From positions 256,001-320,000 of the forward strand of contig CAVXJS010000010.1 in the NCBI GenBank assembly GCA_963762145.1: a stretch of DNA of 64,000 nucleotides, in the 5' to 3' direction. Below the pieces are notes generated by a model that was not told the origin of the DNA, searched no databases, and saw nothing but the letters and a program-made list of their open reading frames with translations. The position numbers and the translations under genes are program-made. Numbering within the stretch: position 1 is the stretch's first letter; each line of letters begins with the position of its first letter. The stretch comes from an uncultured Candidatus Rokubacteria bacterium (GTDB lineage Bacteria; Methylomirabilota; Methylomirabilia; Rokubacteriales; CSP1-6). Of this stretch, positions 37,913-64,000 are shown in pieces.

Positions 37913-37948
37913 TTGACACACTTTGATGATTAGGGTAGCCTCACCTTC
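37913..37948 (+). promoter_or_regulatory. Sigma70 promoter with overlapping DtxR/IdeR-type operator
   Basis: TTGACA (37913)-17 nt-TAGCCT (37936). TTAGGGTAGCCTCACCTTC (37930-37948) versus consensus TTAGGTTAGCCTAACCTAA. Confidence 0.75.
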
Positions 37949-51477: not shown

Positions 51478-51960
51478 TCACTCGCCGGCGGGCCGGCGGG
51501 TGACGACGCTCACGCGGCCGTCCTCCTCCAGGAAGGCGTAGCGGATGTCCCGCAGCGAGATGACGCCGTGATGGCGCAGGGCCGCACGCAGATCCCGGGG
51601 GCCGAGCCGCTCCCGCCGCAGGTTGTCGCGGATGATGCGGCCGTGGCGGACGAGCACGGTGGGGGAGTGCTCAACCACGCGGTCCAAGCGCTTGAAGCGG
51701 AAGGTCACGTAGGCCACCGCTGAGTTGAGAGCCAGGATGGTGACCGCGCCGATGATCCCGCCCCCGAGCGAGTTGTCGTTGCCGATCATCGCGTTCTGCA
51801 GCACGTTGCTGATCAGGAGCAGGACGACGAGGTCGAAGGCGGTGAGCTGGCCGAGCTGCCGCTTGCCGCAGAGGCGGAAGGCCAGCAGCAGGAATGCGTA
51901 CACCGCCCCCGCGCGCAGCACCTTCTCCGCGACGCTGATGTCGGGTACCAGGATGTCCAT
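51478..51960 (-). CDS. DUF421/YetF family membrane protein
   Basis: ATG at 51960. GKRQLGQLTAFDLV, P.VLVRHG, LEEDGRVSV. Confidence 0.9.
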   Translation of the reverse strand: MDILVPDISVAEKVLRAGAVYAFLLLAFRLCGKRQLGQLTAFDLVVLLLISNVLQNAMIGNDNSLGGGIIGAVTILALNSAVAYVTFRFKRLDRVVEHSPTVLVRHGRIIRDNLRRERLGPRDLRAALRHHGVISLRDIRYAFLEEDGRVSVVTRRPAGE

Positions 51961-52010
51961 GAGGCTCCGGCCCTCAGCATCGCACCCGTCCCGACGGATC
52001 GGGGCCGAAA

Positions 52011-52039
52011 TTGACACGCGGGCATCGCGGCCGTAGGCT
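52011..52039 (+). promoter_or_regulatory. Sigma70 promoter for a leaderless uORF-tatA transcript
   Basis: TTGACA (52011)-17 nt-TAGGCT (52034-52039); ATG 52046 lies at the expected +1 and has no SD. Confidence 0.72.
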
Positions 52040-52045
52040 CGCGGC

Positions 52046-52330
52046 ATGTGGCGGCGGACGCTCGTGGTGCTGGGACTGGCGCTGCTGCACCTCCTCCTCG
52101 CCGCGACGGTGACCCTGGAGACCGCCGACGTCGCGTGGGCCCCGAGCTACATCGACGGCGACGACCGCGACGCGACGCGATTCTCCGAGCGGCTGTGCGC
52201 GCTGGCCGGCGCGCCCGCCGGCCTGATCCCGCTCCTGGCCGCGCTCGCGATGGTCGTGGCGCGCCCGCCCGCGGCCGCGCGCCGGGTCGCGCCCGCCCGC
52301 CTCCGCGTCCGCGCTCCACCTCGCGCCTAG
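52046..52330 (+). CDS. 94-aa leader protein with N-terminal RR plus hydrophobic segment and C-terminal RAPP motif (candidate translation-arrest peptide)
   Basis: MWRRTLVVLGLALLHLLLAA...WAPSYIDGDDRD...RLRVRAPPRA*; promoter directly upstream. Confidence 0.7.
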   Translation: MWRRTLVVLGLALLHLLLAATVTLETADVAWAPSYIDGDDRDATRFSERLCALAGAPAGLIPLLAALAMVVARPPAAARRVAPARLRVRAPPRA

Positions 52331-52406
52331 TCCTCTCTCCGCGCGGTTCTCGGGCGGGACTCCCGCCCGCGTCGTGATCCAAATTCCACCGTCGAGGAGG
52401 ACGCGC

Positions 52407-52601
52407 ATGTTCGGTCTCGGTGCTCAGGAGCTGATCTTGATCCTGCTGATCGCGCTGGTGCTGTTCGGTGGCTCGAAGATTCCGGAGGTCGGCCGCTCTC
52501 TCGGGCAGGCGATCCGCGAGTTCAAGCGGGGTGTGGAGACCGCGGACGCGCCCGCCGGGCCCCCGAACCGCCCCGGGCCGGACGGACCGAAGTCGACGTG
52601 A
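52407..52601 (+). CDS. tatA: Twin-arginine translocase TatA/TatE subunit
   Basis: MFGLGAQELILILLIALVLFGGSKIPEVGRSLGQAIREFKRG; SD GAGGAGG. Confidence 0.95.
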   Translation: MFGLGAQELILILLIALVLFGGSKIPEVGRSLGQAIREFKRGVETADAPAGPPNRPGPDGPKST

Positions 52602-52671
52602 CGCGGGCGGGCGCGGGGGACGCGAATGCTTGACACCCGGGCGCCCCCACCTCTAGCGTAGGTGCTTCAGG

Positions 52672-54490
52672 ATGAAGATCAGCGCCGTAAAGAAGCTGTT
52701 CGTGGGATCACCGCTCGCTACGGCGCAGGCCCGGCACGAGCGGCTCTCGAAGACGTCCGCGCTCGCGGTCTTCTCGTCCGACGCGCTCTCCTCGGTGGCG
52801 TACGCCACCGAGGAGATCCTGCTGGTCCTGGTGGTCGCGGGCACCGCCGCGCTCGTCTACTCGATTCCGATCGGGCTCGCGATCGCGGTGCTGATCGCGG
52901 TCGTGGTCAGCTCGTACCGGCAGACCATCCTGGCCTATCCCCAGGGCGGCGGCTCCTACATCGTCACCAAGGACAACCTGGGCCAGGTGCCCGGGCTCGT
53001 CTCCGGGGCCGCGCTGCTCATCGACTACGTGCTGACGGTCGCGGTGAGCGTGGCCGCGGGCGTGGCCGCCATCACCTCCGCGTTCCCCGTCCTCTACGAC
53101 TATCGCGTCCCGCTCGGCGTGCTCTTCGTCGCCGGGATCGCGACCATGAACCTTCGGGGCCTGCGGGAGTCGAGCAATCTCTTCGCGGTCCCGACCTACC
53201 TCTTCGTGATGAGCTTCGGGGGCATGCTCGCCTACGGCTTCATCCGGTGGGTGGCGGGATGGGAGACTCCGCCGCCTCCGACCGCCGATCTCGCGGTGAC
53301 CCAGGACCTGTCCCTCTTCCTGGTGCTGCGCGCGTTCTCCTCCGGCTGCGCCGCGCTCACCGGCGTCGAGGCGGTGTCCGACGGCGTGCCCGCCTTCCGG
53401 CCGCCGGAGGCGCGCAACGCCCGCGTCGTGCTCGCCTGGCTCGGGTTCGATCCTGATCACGCTGTTCGTCGGCATCACGTTCCTGGCCCGTCACCTGCAC
53501 ATCGTGCCGCGGGAGGACGAGACGGTGGTCTCGCAGCTCGCCCGCCTCATCTTCGGAGACGGGCTCCTGTACTACGAGATCCAGGTCGTCACCATGTTCA
53601 TCCTGGTCTTCGCGGCCAACACCGCCTTCGCCGACTTCCCGCGGCTGGCCTACTTCCTGGCCCGCGACGGCTTCATCCCCCGCCAGTTCGCCACCCGCGG
53701 CGATCGGCTCGTCTTCTCCAACGGGATCCTGATCCTGGGCGGCCTCGCCGCCCTCCTCATCGTGCTGTTCGGCGGGGCCACCCACGCCCTCATCCCGCTC
53801 TACGCGGTGGGGGTGTTCCTCTCCTTCACGCTCTCGCAGGCGAGCATGGTGCGGCGCTGGCTCACTCGCCGCGAGCCGGGCTGGCGGTGGCGGTGGGGCC
53901 TCAACGCGGTGGGAGCGGCCACCACCGGCCTCGTGATGCTGGTCATCGCGATCACCAAGTTCAGTCACGGGGCCTGGATGGTCGTGCTGCTGATCCCGCT
54001 GCTGGTGGCGGTCTTCATGATGATCCATCGCCACTACGCCGACGTGGCGGGCCAGCTCTCGCTCGACGAGTACGGAGGGCCGCCCCCGATCGACCACACC
54101 GTGCTCGTGCTGGTGGGCGACCTGCACCGCGGGGTGGCCTCCGCGCTGCGCTACGCGCAGAGCCTCTCGGCGTCGGTGAAGGCGGTCTACGTCGAGATGG
54201 ATCCGGAGCGGACGCAGAAGCTCGAGGAGAAGTGGGGCAAGTGGGGGCTCGGGGTTCCCCTCGTGGTGCTGACGTCGCCCTACCGGTCGCTGCTCACCCC
54301 GTTCCTCGACTACGTCAACCACCTCCTCGCGCTGAGCGAGCGCCAGGTGGTCACGATCGTGATCCCGGAGTTCGTTCCGGCCCGGTGGTGGCAGCATCTC
54401 CTCCACAACCAGACCGCCCTGCTCATCAAGGGCGCGCTGCTGTTCCGCAAGGGCGTCGTGGTCGTGGACGTCCCCTTCCACCTCCGATGA
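52672..54490 (+). CDS. KimA/YdaO-like APC transporter, copy 1 (frameshift near 53450)
   Basis: FSSDALSSVAYATEEIL, AYPQGGGSY, TGVEAVSDG, ANTAFADFPRL, LHNQTAL; own TTGACA/TAGCGT promoter at 52630-52659. Confidence 0.88.
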
Positions 54491-56311
54491 ATCTCTCCAA
54501 GCTCAAACGATGGTTCGTGGGCACGCCGATCGCGACGGCCCAGGCGCACCACGAGCGGCTCGGCCCGGTCACCGGTCTCGCCGTCTTCGCTTCCGACAAC
54601 CTCTCCTCGGTGGCGTACGCCACCGAGGAGATTCTGCGTGTGCTCCTCCTCGCCGGGGTGGGGGCGCTCGCGTTCTCGGTGCCCATCGGCTTCTGCATCG
54701 CCGCGGTGATCGGGATCGTGATCATGTCGTACCGTCAGAACATCGCGGCGTACCCGCAGGGCGCCAGCGACTACATCGTGGCCAAGGACAACCTGGGGGT
54801 CTTCCCGGGCCTGACCGCGGGCGCCGCCCTCCTCATCGACTACACCCTGACGGTGGCGGTGAGCGTCTCCGCCGGAGTCGCCGCGCTCACCTCCGCCTTC
54901 CCGGTGCTCTACCCGTACCGGGTCGTGCTCGGCGTGGGCCTGGTGGTGCTCGTCGCGGTGGCGAACCTGCGGGGCATTCGCGAGTCCGGCCGGGTGTTCG
55001 CGGTGTGGAGCTACCTGTTCATCGCCGGGTATGCGCTGCTGATGGTCTACGGCTTCGCGGCGCTCGCGATCTGGGGCCGCCCCCCGGTGGAGTCGGTCGC
55101 GCCCCCTCCACCGCCTCTCGCCGAGCTCGGCGTGTTCCTGCTCCTGCGTGCCTTCGCCTCCGGCGCGGTCGCCCTCACCGGGATCGAGGCGGTCTCGGAC
55201 GGCACCCCGGCGTTCCGGCCGCCGGAGGTGCGCAACGCGCAGACCGTGCTCGCGGTCCTCGGCGTGATCATGATCACGCTGTTCCTCGGCATCACGGTGC
55301 TGGCGGCCAGCTACGAGATCGTGCCGCACGACCAGGAGACCGTGGTCTCCCAGCTCGCCCGCGAGGTCTTCGGGGGCGGCCTGCTCTACTACTTCATCCA
55401 GGGCGTCTCGATGGTCATCCTGGCCCTCGCGGCCAACACCGCGTTCGCCGACTTCCCCCGGCTGGCGTCGTTCATGGCGCGCGACGGGTTCCTGCCCCGG
55501 CAGTTCGCGAGCCGGGGCGACCGGCTGGTGTTCTCGAACGGGGTCATCATCCTGGCGGTGGCCGCGTCGGCGCTGATCGCGCTCTTCGACGGGAGCACGC
55601 ACTCCCTGATCCCGCTCTACGCCCTCGGGGTCTTCACGTCGTTCACGCTGTCGCAGGTGGGCATGGTGCGCCGCTGGCTCACGCAGCCGCCCCGCGGGAT
55701 GGCGGCCGAAGGCGCTGATCAGCGGGCTGGGCGCGGCGACCACCGGGCTCGTGATGGTGGTCACCGCGCTCGCCAAGTTCTCGGACGGGGCGTGGATCGT
55801 GGTGGTGATCGCGGGCGCCCTCATCGCGGGCTTCGTGAGCATCAACCGCCACTATCGCGAGGTGGCGGGCCAGCTCTCGCTCGACGGCTACGCGGGGCCG
55901 CCGCCCATGCAGCACACCGTGCTCGTCCTGGTCGGCGATCTCCACAAGGGGGTCGTGCAGGCGCTGCAGTACGCGCGCACCCTCTCGCCGTCGGCCAAGG
56001 CGGTCTACGTGGAGATGGATCCGGAGAAGACGCGCCGGCTCGAGGAGAAGTGGGGCAAGTGGGGCTTCGGCGTGCCGCTGGTGGTGCTGACGTCACCCTA
56101 CCGGCTGCTGCTGTCGCCGCTGCTCGACTACGTGGACCATCTCCTCGCGCTCGGCGAGAACCACATGGTGACCATCGTCATCCCCGAGTTCATTCCGGCC
56201 AAGTGGTGGCAGCAGCTCCTCCACAACCAGACCGCGCTGGTGATCAAGGGCGCGCTGCTCTTCCGGCGAAATGTGGTGGTCACGGACGTCCCGTACCACC
56301 TGCGGAGGTAG
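54487..56311 (+). CDS. KimA/YdaO-like APC transporter, copy 2 (frameshift near 55690)
   Basis: ATGA overlap with copy 1. FASDNLSSVAYATEEIL, TGIEAVSDG, LHNQTAL. Confidence 0.88.
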
Positions 56312-56369
56312 TGAACGGTAATGAACCGGGGCTTGCCGAGGGACTCCAGATGAGTATTCTTGGGCAGAG

Positions 56370-57341
56370 ATGAGCTCGTTCCCGACCCTGCAGGCACCGC
56401 TCGTCACGATCCGGTCGGCGACGGCAGCCGATCATGACGCGTTGCAGGCCCTCGAGGGTGCCGCCCCGGACTCGCGGGCGAGCCTGCTCCAGGCCCGGCG
56501 GAACTTCTTCTCCCGGATGGCCGCCTACGACCGTACCCATGTCCTGGTCGCCGAGCAGGAGGGCCGGGTGGTCGGGGTCCAGTGCCTGGCCCTGACTCCC
56601 GTGCGGGTGGCGGGTCAGCCCTGCGCGGCCGGGTACTCGTTCAATACCCGCGTCGCGCCCGCCCACCAGACCCGGGGCCTCGGCACCCGGCTCATGAAGG
56701 CCGGAGCCGAGTGGCTCGAGCGCCAGGGCTGTCGCTATGTCACGGGCCTCATCGGCATCTCCAACACCGCGTCAATGAAGATGGTTGGGGCGCTGGGCTG
56801 GGAGACCGCGGGGCGCTTCGACTATCTGATCCTGGATCTGGCCCGGTTCGAGCCCGACCCGGCCGTGCGCATCCGGAAGGTGGATGCGCTCGGGGATCCG
56901 GCCCATGCCGCGTGGCGGTTCGGGGAGGTCTCGCTCCACCACTTCGTACCGCGGTACCTGGTCTCGGAGCTCTTCACGCCGTACCCCAAGGGCGCCTACA
57001 TGGGGAGCTTGACCGCGTTCGGACCCGGGGGTAGCGCCTGGGTCTCCCTCTGGGACGACCGGGTCCGGCGTGGCCTGGATCCGGAGGTGGTCCGGGCGGT
57101 CAAGGCCTATGACGTGACCCTCAAGGGGGTGGGGGGCTTCCGCGCCTTCTCGGGCATCGCCAATACCCTCCGGGAGGCGGGTCTCGATCATGTCCTGATG
57201 CCGCTCCCGCACGATCCCGCGATGCGGGAGGTCCTGGAGCCCTACGCGGCGGAGATCCTGGAGTTCAATTTCGTCATCAAGCGACTGAACGGCGCGGGGC
57301 CCCTCCCCCCGGGCCCCATCTACTTCGACATCCGGCACTGA
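56370..57341 (+). CDS. GNAT family N-acetyltransferase
   Basis: RVAPAHQTRGLGTRL motif A; N..S motif B. Confidence 0.8.
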   Translation: MSSFPTLQAPLVTIRSATAADHDALQALEGAAPDSRASLLQARRNFFSRMAAYDRTHVLVAEQEGRVVGVQCLALTPVRVAGQPCAAGYSFNTRVAPAHQTRGLGTRLMKAGAEWLERQGCRYVTGLIGISNTASMKMVGALGWETAGRFDYLILDLARFEPDPAVRIRKVDALGDPAHAAWRFGEVSLHHFVPRYLVSELFTPYPKGAYMGSLTAFGPGGSAWVSLWDDRVRRGLDPEVVRAVKAYDVTLKGVGGFRAFSGIANTLREAGLDHVLMPLPHDPAMREVLEPYAAEILEFNFVIKRLNGAGPLPPGPIYFDIRH

Positions 57342-63335: not shown

Positions 63336-64000
63336 GACAACTCCCAGATTAAATACCCGGGGCGGTGGGGGAGAACACCTCCCTCGGCACCGCCTCCGCC
63401 GCGGGCGGTCGATGGACCGCCGGCGACGGAAGCGACGCCGTGAAAACCCTTGCCTCGCGTAGCAGCGCAGCCCGGGCCGGGGCCCCGGGGGGCCTCCGCG
63501 AGGGCAGCGCATCATCTATATATAGAAATCAGACCCGAGATTGAGAGGGCAAAGAGCGGGGTCTCGAAGAGACTGGAACGGTGGAGAGTGAAATCTAGTG
63601 AAATTATTGCGACATGTCAATATCGCCGGAATTTGGCTGCTTCAGGACGGACGTGCGGGAGCAGGGACCCGGCCAGGGGAACAATTGCATCCTCCGGTCC
63701 GGGCGAAGACGGGTGACGACCCGGAAGAATCCCCGACCGGGATCGGCCCGAGGCCCTTCCGGAACAAGTCTCGAATCGGCGCGAACATCTTCGGCGACTC
63801 CTGCGTCTACAGTGGCATGCAAGGCAAGGCGATGGCCCATGTGAGCGGCCTCGCCGAAGCGGCTCGAGGCACCGAAACGACCGAGGTCACGATGTTTGCC
63901 GTGTGGACCAGTCACCCCTGTAAGCGATCCGGAGCGGGTCGTCTCGCCGGTCAACCGGCGTATTCGCTGCCCGTCCCTCCGCTGCGCCTGTGACGCCCCG

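Follow-up and report, generated by a model that had tools for sequence, protein, structure and literature searches.

Here we describe a small gene in a 64,000-nt stretch of DNA (the window) from an uncultured Candidatus Rokubacteria bacterium. It encodes a 94-residue leader peptide that carries the motif Arg-Ala-Pro-Pro (RAPP) near its C terminus and lies directly ahead of a paralogue of tatA, a gene of the twin-arginine translocation (Tat) system. Our comparison of sequences confirms a conserved RAPP leader ahead of this tatA paralogue that appears to be translated from a leaderless mRNA and, by hydropathy, to be exported. The gene is real and conserved, it is linked to tatA, its two invariant elements are held at a fixed spacing, and the sequence just past its stop codon can pair with the Shine-Dalgarno (SD) sequence of tatA. 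We consider it probable, with some reserve, that this is a regulatory arrest leader of the RAPP class that shares a leaderless mRNA with the tatA paralogue, would enter a Sec-type export route, would respond to force or to a ligand and would thereby tune the translation of tatA.

The leader gene and its link to tatA

We read the locus at 51700-53200 of the window, which has a G+C content of 70%. A -35 hexamer TTGACA (52011-52016, forward strand, as are all features of the leader-tatA unit given here) is followed after 17 nt by a -10 hexamer TAGGCT (52034-52039), and 6 nt further on by the ATG of the leader open reading frame (ORF; 94 codons and a stop, 52046-52330). No SD sequence would fit ahead of this ATG, so the mRNA is most naturally read as leaderless or as having a leader of 1 nt. 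The promoter, including its TTGACA, is kept ahead of the ATG in the 10 related loci listed from genus g1, the genus of the window's genome, with TAGTCT as the -10 hexamer in one of them; in other genera the -10 equivalents are TAGAAT, TAGCAT or TATACT, placed 5-7 nt ahead of the start codon. The pattern TTGACA-N17-TAGNNT occurs three times in the window against 0.01 expected occurrences, and the two further exact matches, at 37913-37941 (+) and 63592-63620 (-), probably mark promoters of this kind too.

All six frames are open at the locus, as is usual for such a G+C content. The G+C content of the leader at codon positions 1, 2 and 3 is 0.82, 0.59 and 0.95, respectively; this is the same pattern as in the neighbouring genes, which identifies the leader frame as the coding frame. 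Together with its homologues and profile matches, this makes the 94-codon ORF a real gene. The encoded protein begins MWRRTLVVLGLALLHLLLAA and ends ...RLRVRAPPRA, with R89-A90-P91-P92 encoded at 52310-52321 and followed by R93, A94 and the TAG stop codon (52328-52330), two codons past the motif. The ATG of tatA lies 76 nt past this stop. The tatA paralogue (52407-52601) encodes 64 residues and matches PF02416 with 63.3 bits against a cut-off of 21 (E = 1.2e-17).

An earlier note on this DNA, made from the letters and a list of ORFs, had described a near-consensus promoter starting a leaderless 94-residue ORF, an N terminus with twin Arg and an h-region, RAPP two codons before the stop, and tatA 76 nt downstream with no separate promoter evident. 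These features are present as described, except that only the -35 element is close to consensus, the -10 hexamer matching TATAAT at 3 of 6 positions. A stricter promoter and terminator scan of 51700-52900 returned 0 promoters and 0 terminators; since it overlooks even the leader's own promoter, on account of those three mismatches, the statement that tatA has no promoter of its own is a weak one.

Three genes of the TatA/B family are present in the genome: the one in the window, a 62-residue TatA gene after a selB-like gene on contig 9, and a 159-residue TatB-like gene on contig 19. A strong TatC match (E = 7e-71) is found on contig 14, where there is also a second, weak PF00902 match (E = 9e-6). 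No Tat gene of the genome adjoins another. The leader-linked gene is thus an extra, separately controlled copy of TatA, and one that is present in only part of the order.

The earlier note had also raised the concern that RAPP might be unconserved, a mere product of chance in GC-rich frames. In a crude set of 3,661 ORFs of the whole genome with high G+C at third codon positions (1.16 million residues), RAPP is instead depleted, with 16 occurrences observed against about 46 expected from residue frequencies; for AAPP, in the same set, the count is 103 and the expectation about 67. Five of the 16 occurrences of RAPP lie within the last 12 residues of ORFs of 94-176 residues with a hydrophobic N terminus, and each of these five ORFs is followed 57-85 nt on by a gene on the same strand with a strong SD. 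The motif is moreover invariant in 20 of 20 aligned leaders, which share 23-79% identity with the window leader, and its residues are preserved while the third position of each of its four codons varies. RAPP at the end of the leader is more than chance. The depletion and C-terminal placement of RAPP in this genome agree with the trends described in the main text of Fujiwara et al. 2025 (PMC12992588), namely that bacterial RAPP is depleted and that the remainder is enriched at the C termini of small secreted proteins upstream of diverse genes.

Four further small ORFs with signal-like N termini and RAPP at the end were noted on other contigs of the same genome (L022:314-598 (+), L023:282-812 (+), L024:4992-5312 (-) and L025:235-537 (+)). 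One is followed by a TonB_C gene, one by a gene for a secreted protein with genes for ZnuA and a permease-like membrane protein after it, and two by genes for secreted proteins of 149 and 84 residues. One of the four ORFs is a paralogue of the window leader and lies between an upstream Metal_resist (PF13801) gene and the gene for the 149-residue secreted protein.

From 303 candidates, a word-indexed protein search at E <= 0.01 gave 46 homologues of the leader; all of them lack both a Pfam domain and an informative name. Of 29 that we aligned, 20 end in RAPP plus two residues, and one each has RPPP and RGPP at the same place; the other seven are truncated or diverge C-terminally as if by a change of frame, and one of these (P0042) retains an internal RAPP. 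Among 61 related genomes, convincing matches to the leader (E <= 6e-10) were confined to genus g1, where they occur in 10 of 20 other genomes as well as in the window's own. The 10 genomes with the leader are the same 10 whose best match to the window TatA has an E value of 1e-21 or lower, and the other 10 have neither. Within g1, the leaders drop to 40% identity, as in the example MLGARTLV...SYFDDDDGDFLPLLLSEQMPAL...ARVRFRAPPCL. All 12 g1 loci nonetheless retain RAPP and have tatA as the next gene downstream; the motif is followed by two residues in 11 of them and by seven in one, the orthologue L010, which has lost its stop codon and whose ORF is five codons longer. Four weak matches (G007, G014, G049 and G059; E = 0.001-0.008) were dropped on finding no tatA in their loci.

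The wider comparison covered 183 genomes of the order and 68 of other orders of the phylum (251 in all); three unpublished genomes among them (G067, G175 and G029) enter the denominators and tallies only, and no locus was taken from them. TatA matches are present in 179 of the 183 genomes, and we examined the 20 best tatA loci outside g1. Ten of these have a leader ORF of 91-104 codons directly upstream (46-145 nt), with a signal-like N terminus, the motif PDP(T/S)W..G.YDG.DGDE, and an end formed by RAPP plus one or two residues. In another three (L041, L042 and L045; genera g31 and g39) the leader lies about 275-355 nt upstream, ending in RAPP in two cases and in RSPP in one. Three loci of genus g30 (L027, L029 and L030) lack the leader and have TTGACA-N17-TAGGCT directly ahead of tatA, and the remaining four have neither leader nor promoter. 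An ORF of about 63 codons with a strong SD of its own stands between leader and tatA in L041, L042 and L045 (beginning MENSATYNGDGGEVYRLVWVP... in the first two). The g30 tatA genes, with 75-78% identity, the divergent neighbour gene kept and a 5' untranslated region of about 55 nt, resemble a natural comparison set without the leader.

A strict DNA pattern (CGN GCN CCN CCN, two codons, a stop, 40-120 nt and the first five tatA codons, MFGLG) was found at 27 places in 25 of the 183 genomes, spread over nine genera and two families, with 0 matches for the reversed control. It gave 0 matches in the 68 genomes of other orders of the phylum. Because the pattern overlooks loci with an intervening ORF, 25 genomes is a lower bound. 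The leader-tatA unit thus recurs in many related bacteria of soil.

A large leader family with two invariant elements

The window leader is built from an n-region (MWRR), a hydrophobic stretch, a segment of net charge -4 that holds an Asp motif, a second hydrophobic stretch and a +6 tail rich in Arg, Pro and Ala that carries RAPP. The first hydrophobic stretch (residues 5-22, 52058-52111), a candidate signal or anchor segment, has a best 12-residue Kyte-Doolittle mean of 2.77 (residues 6-17). The second (residues 58-72, Kyte-Doolittle 2.8) is found in g1 and g38 and is not a feature of the whole family. The acidic motif D28...D37-x-x-D40-x-D42 (ADVAWAPSYIDGDDRD, 52127-52171) takes the form PDPtWi.G.YD..D.D. 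across the family. In the alignment of 20 leaders only eight columns are invariant: these four Asp residues and R89-A90-P91-P92. The earlier note's choice of the acidic motif as a notable element was well made, since it and RAPP are the sole invariant parts of the family. Neither Cys nor His is conserved in the leader alignment, the invariant residues outside RAPP being the four Asp.

The linker between the Asp cluster and RAPP has no invariant column and a fixed length. All 19 tatA-linked leaders compared place the Arg of RAPP 47-49 residues past the last invariant Asp; this spacing is 48-50 residues in 37 of 38 other leaders (one being unscored) and 47-50 residues in 105 of 106 scorable database representatives, the exception having 69. 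The N-terminal length and the tail past RAPP vary more than this linker does. In the tatA-linked set, the end of the leader is also tightly kept, with RAPP, two residues and a stop in 18 of 19.

We built a family profile from the 20-leader alignment, which consists mostly of tatA-linked leaders. It matches in 98 of the 183 genomes of the order (27 of 58 genera), at 150 listed and 164 unlisted places, with up to 12 per genome. Against a library of 1.84 billion proteins, the profile recovers 1,697 cluster representatives (50% identity) at E <= 0.001 and 123 at E <= 1e-10. Among the top 150 matches, 147 are 260 residues or shorter; 109 of these 147 have RAPP (99), RSPP (6) or RGPP (4) in their last 12 residues, and 87 have exactly two residues past the motif, most of the motif-less ones appearing truncated or read through. 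We found no Pfam or NCBIfam model for the leader family. Its neighbours in the ESM Atlas are unnamed clusters from Methylomirabilota/Rokuibacteriota, and the nearest Pfam-named clusters by language-model features (DUF6769 at 0.89 and DUF2946 at 0.88) are to be taken as leads only. A degenerate DNA word for PDP[TS]WI matches mostly by chance; of 80 loci examined among the matches listed, six hold true family members, five ending in RAPP or RGPP and one without the motif; their record titles (Candidatus Methylomirabilota, Methylomirabilia, Gemmatimonadetes, Nitrosotalea, Deferrimicrobiaceae or uncultured) give a taxonomic hint only.

When contig coordinates were matched by hand, a TatA match proved to follow closely after 33 of the 40 best profile matches, as is expected of a profile derived mostly from tatA-linked leaders. 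We also fetched 40 matches not linked to tatA, so that the census takes in these and about 33 tatA-linked loci, of 300-plus leader loci in the order. Thirty-eight of the 40 were recognised by their motif (35 RAPP and 3 RSPP), and 37 of these 38 end 2-8 residues past it; one has 31 residues after the motif, and one is cut away with no near stop. The downstream gene could be called for 30 of the 38. By Pfam, these genes encode AsnB-type amidotransferases (five), nucleotidyl transferases (two) and one each of UPF0047, LPG_synthase_TM, HlyD and a helix-turn-helix/response regulator. By eye, about 11 of the downstream products are secreted proteins of 404-497 residues with a FDISWVD...YYLADRSN motif and weak beta-propeller matches, and seven are secreted proteins of 140-149 residues without any family. 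Leader-family genes were also seen clustered within a few kb, some of them divergent (G019:C57 20569-30404, G062:C261 2170-10641 and G085:C36 24916-25613), and at least one such cluster includes AsnB-type genes (L082).

In a quick maximum-likelihood tree of 57 leaders (100 columns; many forks unresolved), the 19 tatA-linked leaders form two adjacent groups, which takes two label changes; none of 500 label shuffles was as low. Leaders also group by class of downstream gene. We chose the rows of the tree, setting high-scoring (tatA) against lower-scoring (other) matches, which favours some separation. The tatA-linked leaders further share a second motif, [WS][DE].xPA[LV]. Judged from the aligned sequences, they are one old and stable subfamily of the larger leader family.

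The profile also matched two giant proteins (P0050 and P0079), in many stretches each, that are cadherin-like/Big_9 repeat proteins. Their repeats carry (S)YF(T)D.DGD.L, close to the g1 leader form SYFDDDDGDFL. Cadherin-like repeats of this sort bind calcium. We take the resemblance as a lead for a possible cation-binding role of the acidic motif.

The same resemblance, to the F-x-D-x-DGD-x-L of bacterial cadherin-like repeats, could be read as the mark of a stable small membrane or periplasmic protein with a role of its own, such as a partner of TatA, in which RAPP is ordinary or is kept as RNA (a CCUCC anti-SD); the second hydrophobic segment of g1 could then give a helical hairpin. We think this very improbable. 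RAPP is held as amino acids with free third codon positions and is depleted elsewhere in the proteome, the linker is free in sequence and fixed in length, the second hydrophobic segment is not family-wide, and the same leader stands ahead of unrelated genes.

How the leader may act, and the genes around it

The earlier note had proposed that the leader monitors Tat itself: as a Tat substrate or a ligand of TatBC, it would be released from arrest by Tat engagement, so that Tat activity feeds back on TatA. In keeping with this, the 25 genomes found with the strict pattern have tatA downstream, the tatA-linked leaders are a subfamily with a motif of their own, and a twin Arg precedes the h-region in the window copy and in 10 of 19 tatA-linked leaders. 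The twin Arg is, however, missing from the other nine and is equally frequent in leaders ahead of non-Tat genes (20 of 38); orthologue N termini in g1 read for example MLGARTLV, MVGWRPLL and MVGARAGL. From these sequences, its frequency appears to be the background of Arg-rich n-regions and not a Tat mark. The consensus of Tat signals is S/T-R-R-x-F-L-K, and this context is not present in the leaders. Of the features that the note had wished to see conserved in relatives, RAPP and the hydrophobic N terminus (57 of 57 leaders compared) are kept, and the twin Arg is not. The mean Kyte-Doolittle value of these N termini, 2.8-3.0, is very high, and such a strongly hydrophobic h-region is Sec- or SRP-like (SRP, signal recognition particle) in appearance. 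Tat carries folded proteins, and does so post-translationally, and only about 55 residues of the leader would stand outside the tunnel at the stall. By these sequence proxies the leader does not come out as a substrate of the machinery whose gene follows it, and the same architecture recurs ahead of unrelated genes. The Tat monitor thus loses its footing, and we regard feedback of Tat activity on TatA as improbable.

The mRNA between the two genes could offer a way for a stalled ribosome to act. A pyrimidine-rich anti-SD (UCCUCUCUCC, 52331-52340) directly past the leader stop pairs with the tatA SD (GAGGAGGA, 52394-52401) in both the minimum free energy (MFE) and the consensus fold, and an inner G+C-rich hairpin (52351-52369) forms between them in both folds. 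In the MFE fold of 52300-52425, GCGCC-UAG-UCCUCUCUC pairs with GAGGAGGACGCGC and encloses this hairpin. The sequence (C/U)CUCCUC(U/C)CC is kept in 8 of 10 g1 intergenic sequences, and every sequence in the g1 alignment has GGAGG. In the consensus fold of the 10 g1 sequences, five nucleotides located 4-8 nt past the stop pair with GGAGG; three pairs, one of them in the outer stem, are kept by double changes, and the covariation term is +0.43. Masking of the tatA SD by the anti-SD is plausible in these models.

Stalling, export-driven release and the direction of the effect on tatA are steps that we infer, and in the arrest-leader reading they would proceed as follows. The N-terminal hydrophobic signal would take the nascent chain co-translationally to the Sec (SRP/YidC) route, and the ribosome would stall at RAPP, its P site occupied by the P91 codon and its A site by the P92 codon, following the geometry with RAP in the P site described in PMC10951233. 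The last two codons and the stop would then lie inside the ribosome, whose 3' edge, near 52331 at about +15 nt relative to the P-site codon, would abut the anti-SD that otherwise pairs with the tatA SD. Some 50-65 residues would then separate the acidic motif from the peptidyl-transferase centre, a distance at which the chain meets the SecYEG channel and the membrane. Force profiles described in PMC7886326 have nascent chains meet the translocon or membrane at about 45 residues from that centre, and the distance of the Asp cluster would therefore fit a motif that translocates just when the ribosome stalls. Translocation of the motif by the export machinery, the membrane potential acting on its negative charges, or cation binding in the periplasm could pull on the chain and end the arrest; a review (PMC6028853) describes release of SecM arrest by acidic stretches through the membrane potential. 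The duration of the stall would set how long the tatA ribosome-binding site is open.

Because the same leader design stands ahead of many unrelated genes in the order, the signal would be the general status of the envelope or of export, not Tat activity. Most likely, then, what is sensed is general, i.e. Sec export, membrane potential or a periplasmic ion, as opposed to Tat throughput. A more specific form of this idea is that the leader is a ruler-like sensor: with the Asp cluster 47-50 residues from RAPP, the negative patch would sit in or just past the SecYEG channel at the stall, a pull on it by the membrane potential or by capture of a periplasmic divalent cation would set the stall time, and one signal would reach dispersed genes, the extra TatA included. 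We put this forward tentatively, as a possibility more likely wrong than right.

The polarity could also be the reverse, with the RAPP stall leaving tatA masked and export-released ribosomes reaching the stop, covering 52331-52340 and opening the SD by translational coupling, so that TatA would be proportional to export success. We computed the opening energy of the SD and start codon at 21 loci, with 40 shuffles each, modelling a stalled ribosome as mRNA covered to +15 from the P91 codon. The mean falls to 5.63 kcal/mol with a ribosome at RAPP, a drop of about 2.2, and to 5.29 kcal/mol with one at the stop; the anti-SD lies just outside the modelled footprint of the stalled ribosome and is fully covered by a terminating one, and the arrangement of RAPP, two codons and a stop is fixed in 18 of 19 tatA-linked leaders, all of which would suit the reverse polarity. 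The gap of 0.3 kcal/mol is nevertheless within noise, two g1 loci (L003 and L004) use the A-P-P-L codons as their best anti-SD, which a stalled ribosome covers, and in L010 the stop has moved five codons downstream. The characterised leaders SecM and CutF, moreover, switch their targets on by stalling. We consider the reverse polarity unlikely, and folding cannot decide whether the stall turns tatA on or off.

Attenuation of the type known from tnaC is another way in which a parked ribosome could act: it would hide a C-rich Rho loading site past the stop, and the stall would avert premature termination before tatA. The 20 nt past the stop are indeed C-rich and G-poor, and the scan of 51700-52900 gave no intrinsic terminator. 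The spacer, however, is only 76 nt long and holds a stable G+C hairpin, which makes it poor for Rho loading, and we give this explanation very little credence.

Returning to the arrest-leader reading, several results weigh against it, most of them at the step of SD masking. For the 126-nt fold (52300-52425), the z-score reaches only -0.77. Nor does masking rise above background: the mean opening energy is 7.85 kcal/mol for native and 7.49 kcal/mol for shuffled spacers, and natives beat at least 34 of 40 shuffles in only four loci (L002, L004, L009 and L016). The stalled ribosome would barely reach the anti-SD, which starts some 15-18 nt 3' of the P-site codon, and a terminating ribosome would cover more of it, so that a polarity in which the stall means ON is tentative. 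The signal-peptide status of the leaders was judged by hydropathy alone. The contigs of four metatranscriptome runs are short pieces from relatives over tatA and the downstream gene, with no usable cover of the leader. Finally, the main text of Sakiyama et al. (PMC7897499) gives no SD-sequestering hairpins for ApcA, ApdA and ApdP, and the class therefore need not act through SD masking.

The leader-tatA unit is flanked upstream by divergent DUF421/YetF-like and VTT/DedA genes and downstream, by Pfam, by an APC-type permease gene. The permease gene is preceded by a promoter of its own, TTGACA and TAGCGT with 18 nt between them, the latter about 12 nt ahead of the ATG (window about 52625-52660); in another frame this conserved promoter stretch reads MLDTRAPPPLA, a chance RAPP seen in several loci. 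Two tandem paralogous genes of the APC/AA_permease_2 type, starting MKISAVKKLFVG... and MNLSKLKRWFVG..., occupy 52672-56373. Each apparently shifts frame once, at different relative positions (near 53480 and near 55700), as a result of which one ORF of 1233 codons spans both. Real frameshifts could account for this, as could misassembly between the two paralogues.

Known arrest leaders and what the family means

The leader invites comparison with ApdA, ApdP and ApcA, which, as described in PMC7897499 and PMC10951233, are likewise upstream ORFs with an N-terminal localisation signal, R-A-P-P near the 3' end and a co-directional export gene. Unlike in those systems, the gene downstream is here tatA and not a gene of the Sec/YidC pathway, and the sequences do not support the leader as a substrate of the pathway whose gene follows it. 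The similarity is confined to RAPP, and the leader described here differs further in its invariant acidic motif 47-50 residues from RAPP, in its leaderless mRNA and in belonging to a multi-copy family with up to 12 profile matches per genome. As summarised in PMC7897499, SecM carries a signal sequence and arrests translation a few codons short of its stop, and a stem between the two genes sequesters the SD of secA. The leader is alike in its signal, in its C-terminal motif near the stop and, by prediction, in the stem over the downstream SD; the motif itself is RAGP in SecM as opposed to RAPP here, and SecM is a substrate of the pathway it regulates, for which we find no support in the present case.

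Leaders that sense copper offer another parallel. According to a preprint (bioRxiv 10.1101/2025.02.05.636593), CutF of Rhodobacter capsulatus is a Cu-dependent DUF2946 leader that is exported during translation, and its stalling opens a stem-loop covering the cutO ribosome-binding site. CruR of Bordetella pertussis (DUF2946/PF11162) is described in the main text of PMC12992588 as an exported leader that senses periplasmic copper, with a C-terminal Pro-rich/RAPP stall. In these accounts, CutF and CruR share with our leader the export, a conserved motif facing the periplasm, a C-terminal stall of the RAPP type and a structure shielding the downstream ribosome-binding site (export, stall and shielding being predicted here), and a downstream gene that is not the leader's exporter. 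The window leader has no PF11162 match, however (no Pfam family at E up to 0.01), and carries an Asp-rich D-x-x-D-x-D in place of a Cys/His motif. We take the conserved motif of DUF2946 to be of the Cys type. The broader set of small RAPP/RGPP ORFs in PMC12992588 is alike in having RAPP near the C terminus of a small secreted or membrane protein and targets beyond Sec and YidC.

Our literature search returned no paper that ties an arrest peptide to a Tat gene, and the main texts of PMC7897499, PMC10987492 and PMC12992588 contain no word starting with Tat or twin-arginine; the figures and appendix of PMC12992588, which concern downstream gene classes, lie outside this search and may list TatA. 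Within that scope, tatA as a target, the very large unannotated leader family and the two invariant elements at a fixed distance are new.

Arrest-peptide control is established for components of Sec and YidC and, lately, for metal-homeostasis genes. A RAPP leader over a tatA paralogue, in at least nine genera, would extend such control to a third general export route, and if the ruler-like sensor proves true it would be the first arrest-peptide control of a Tat component. The work also defines an unannotated family whose members annotation pipelines call hypothetical. The linker between the two invariant elements of this family, the acidic patch and RAPP, varies in sequence but not in length, which makes the family a clean natural experiment on force-sensing.

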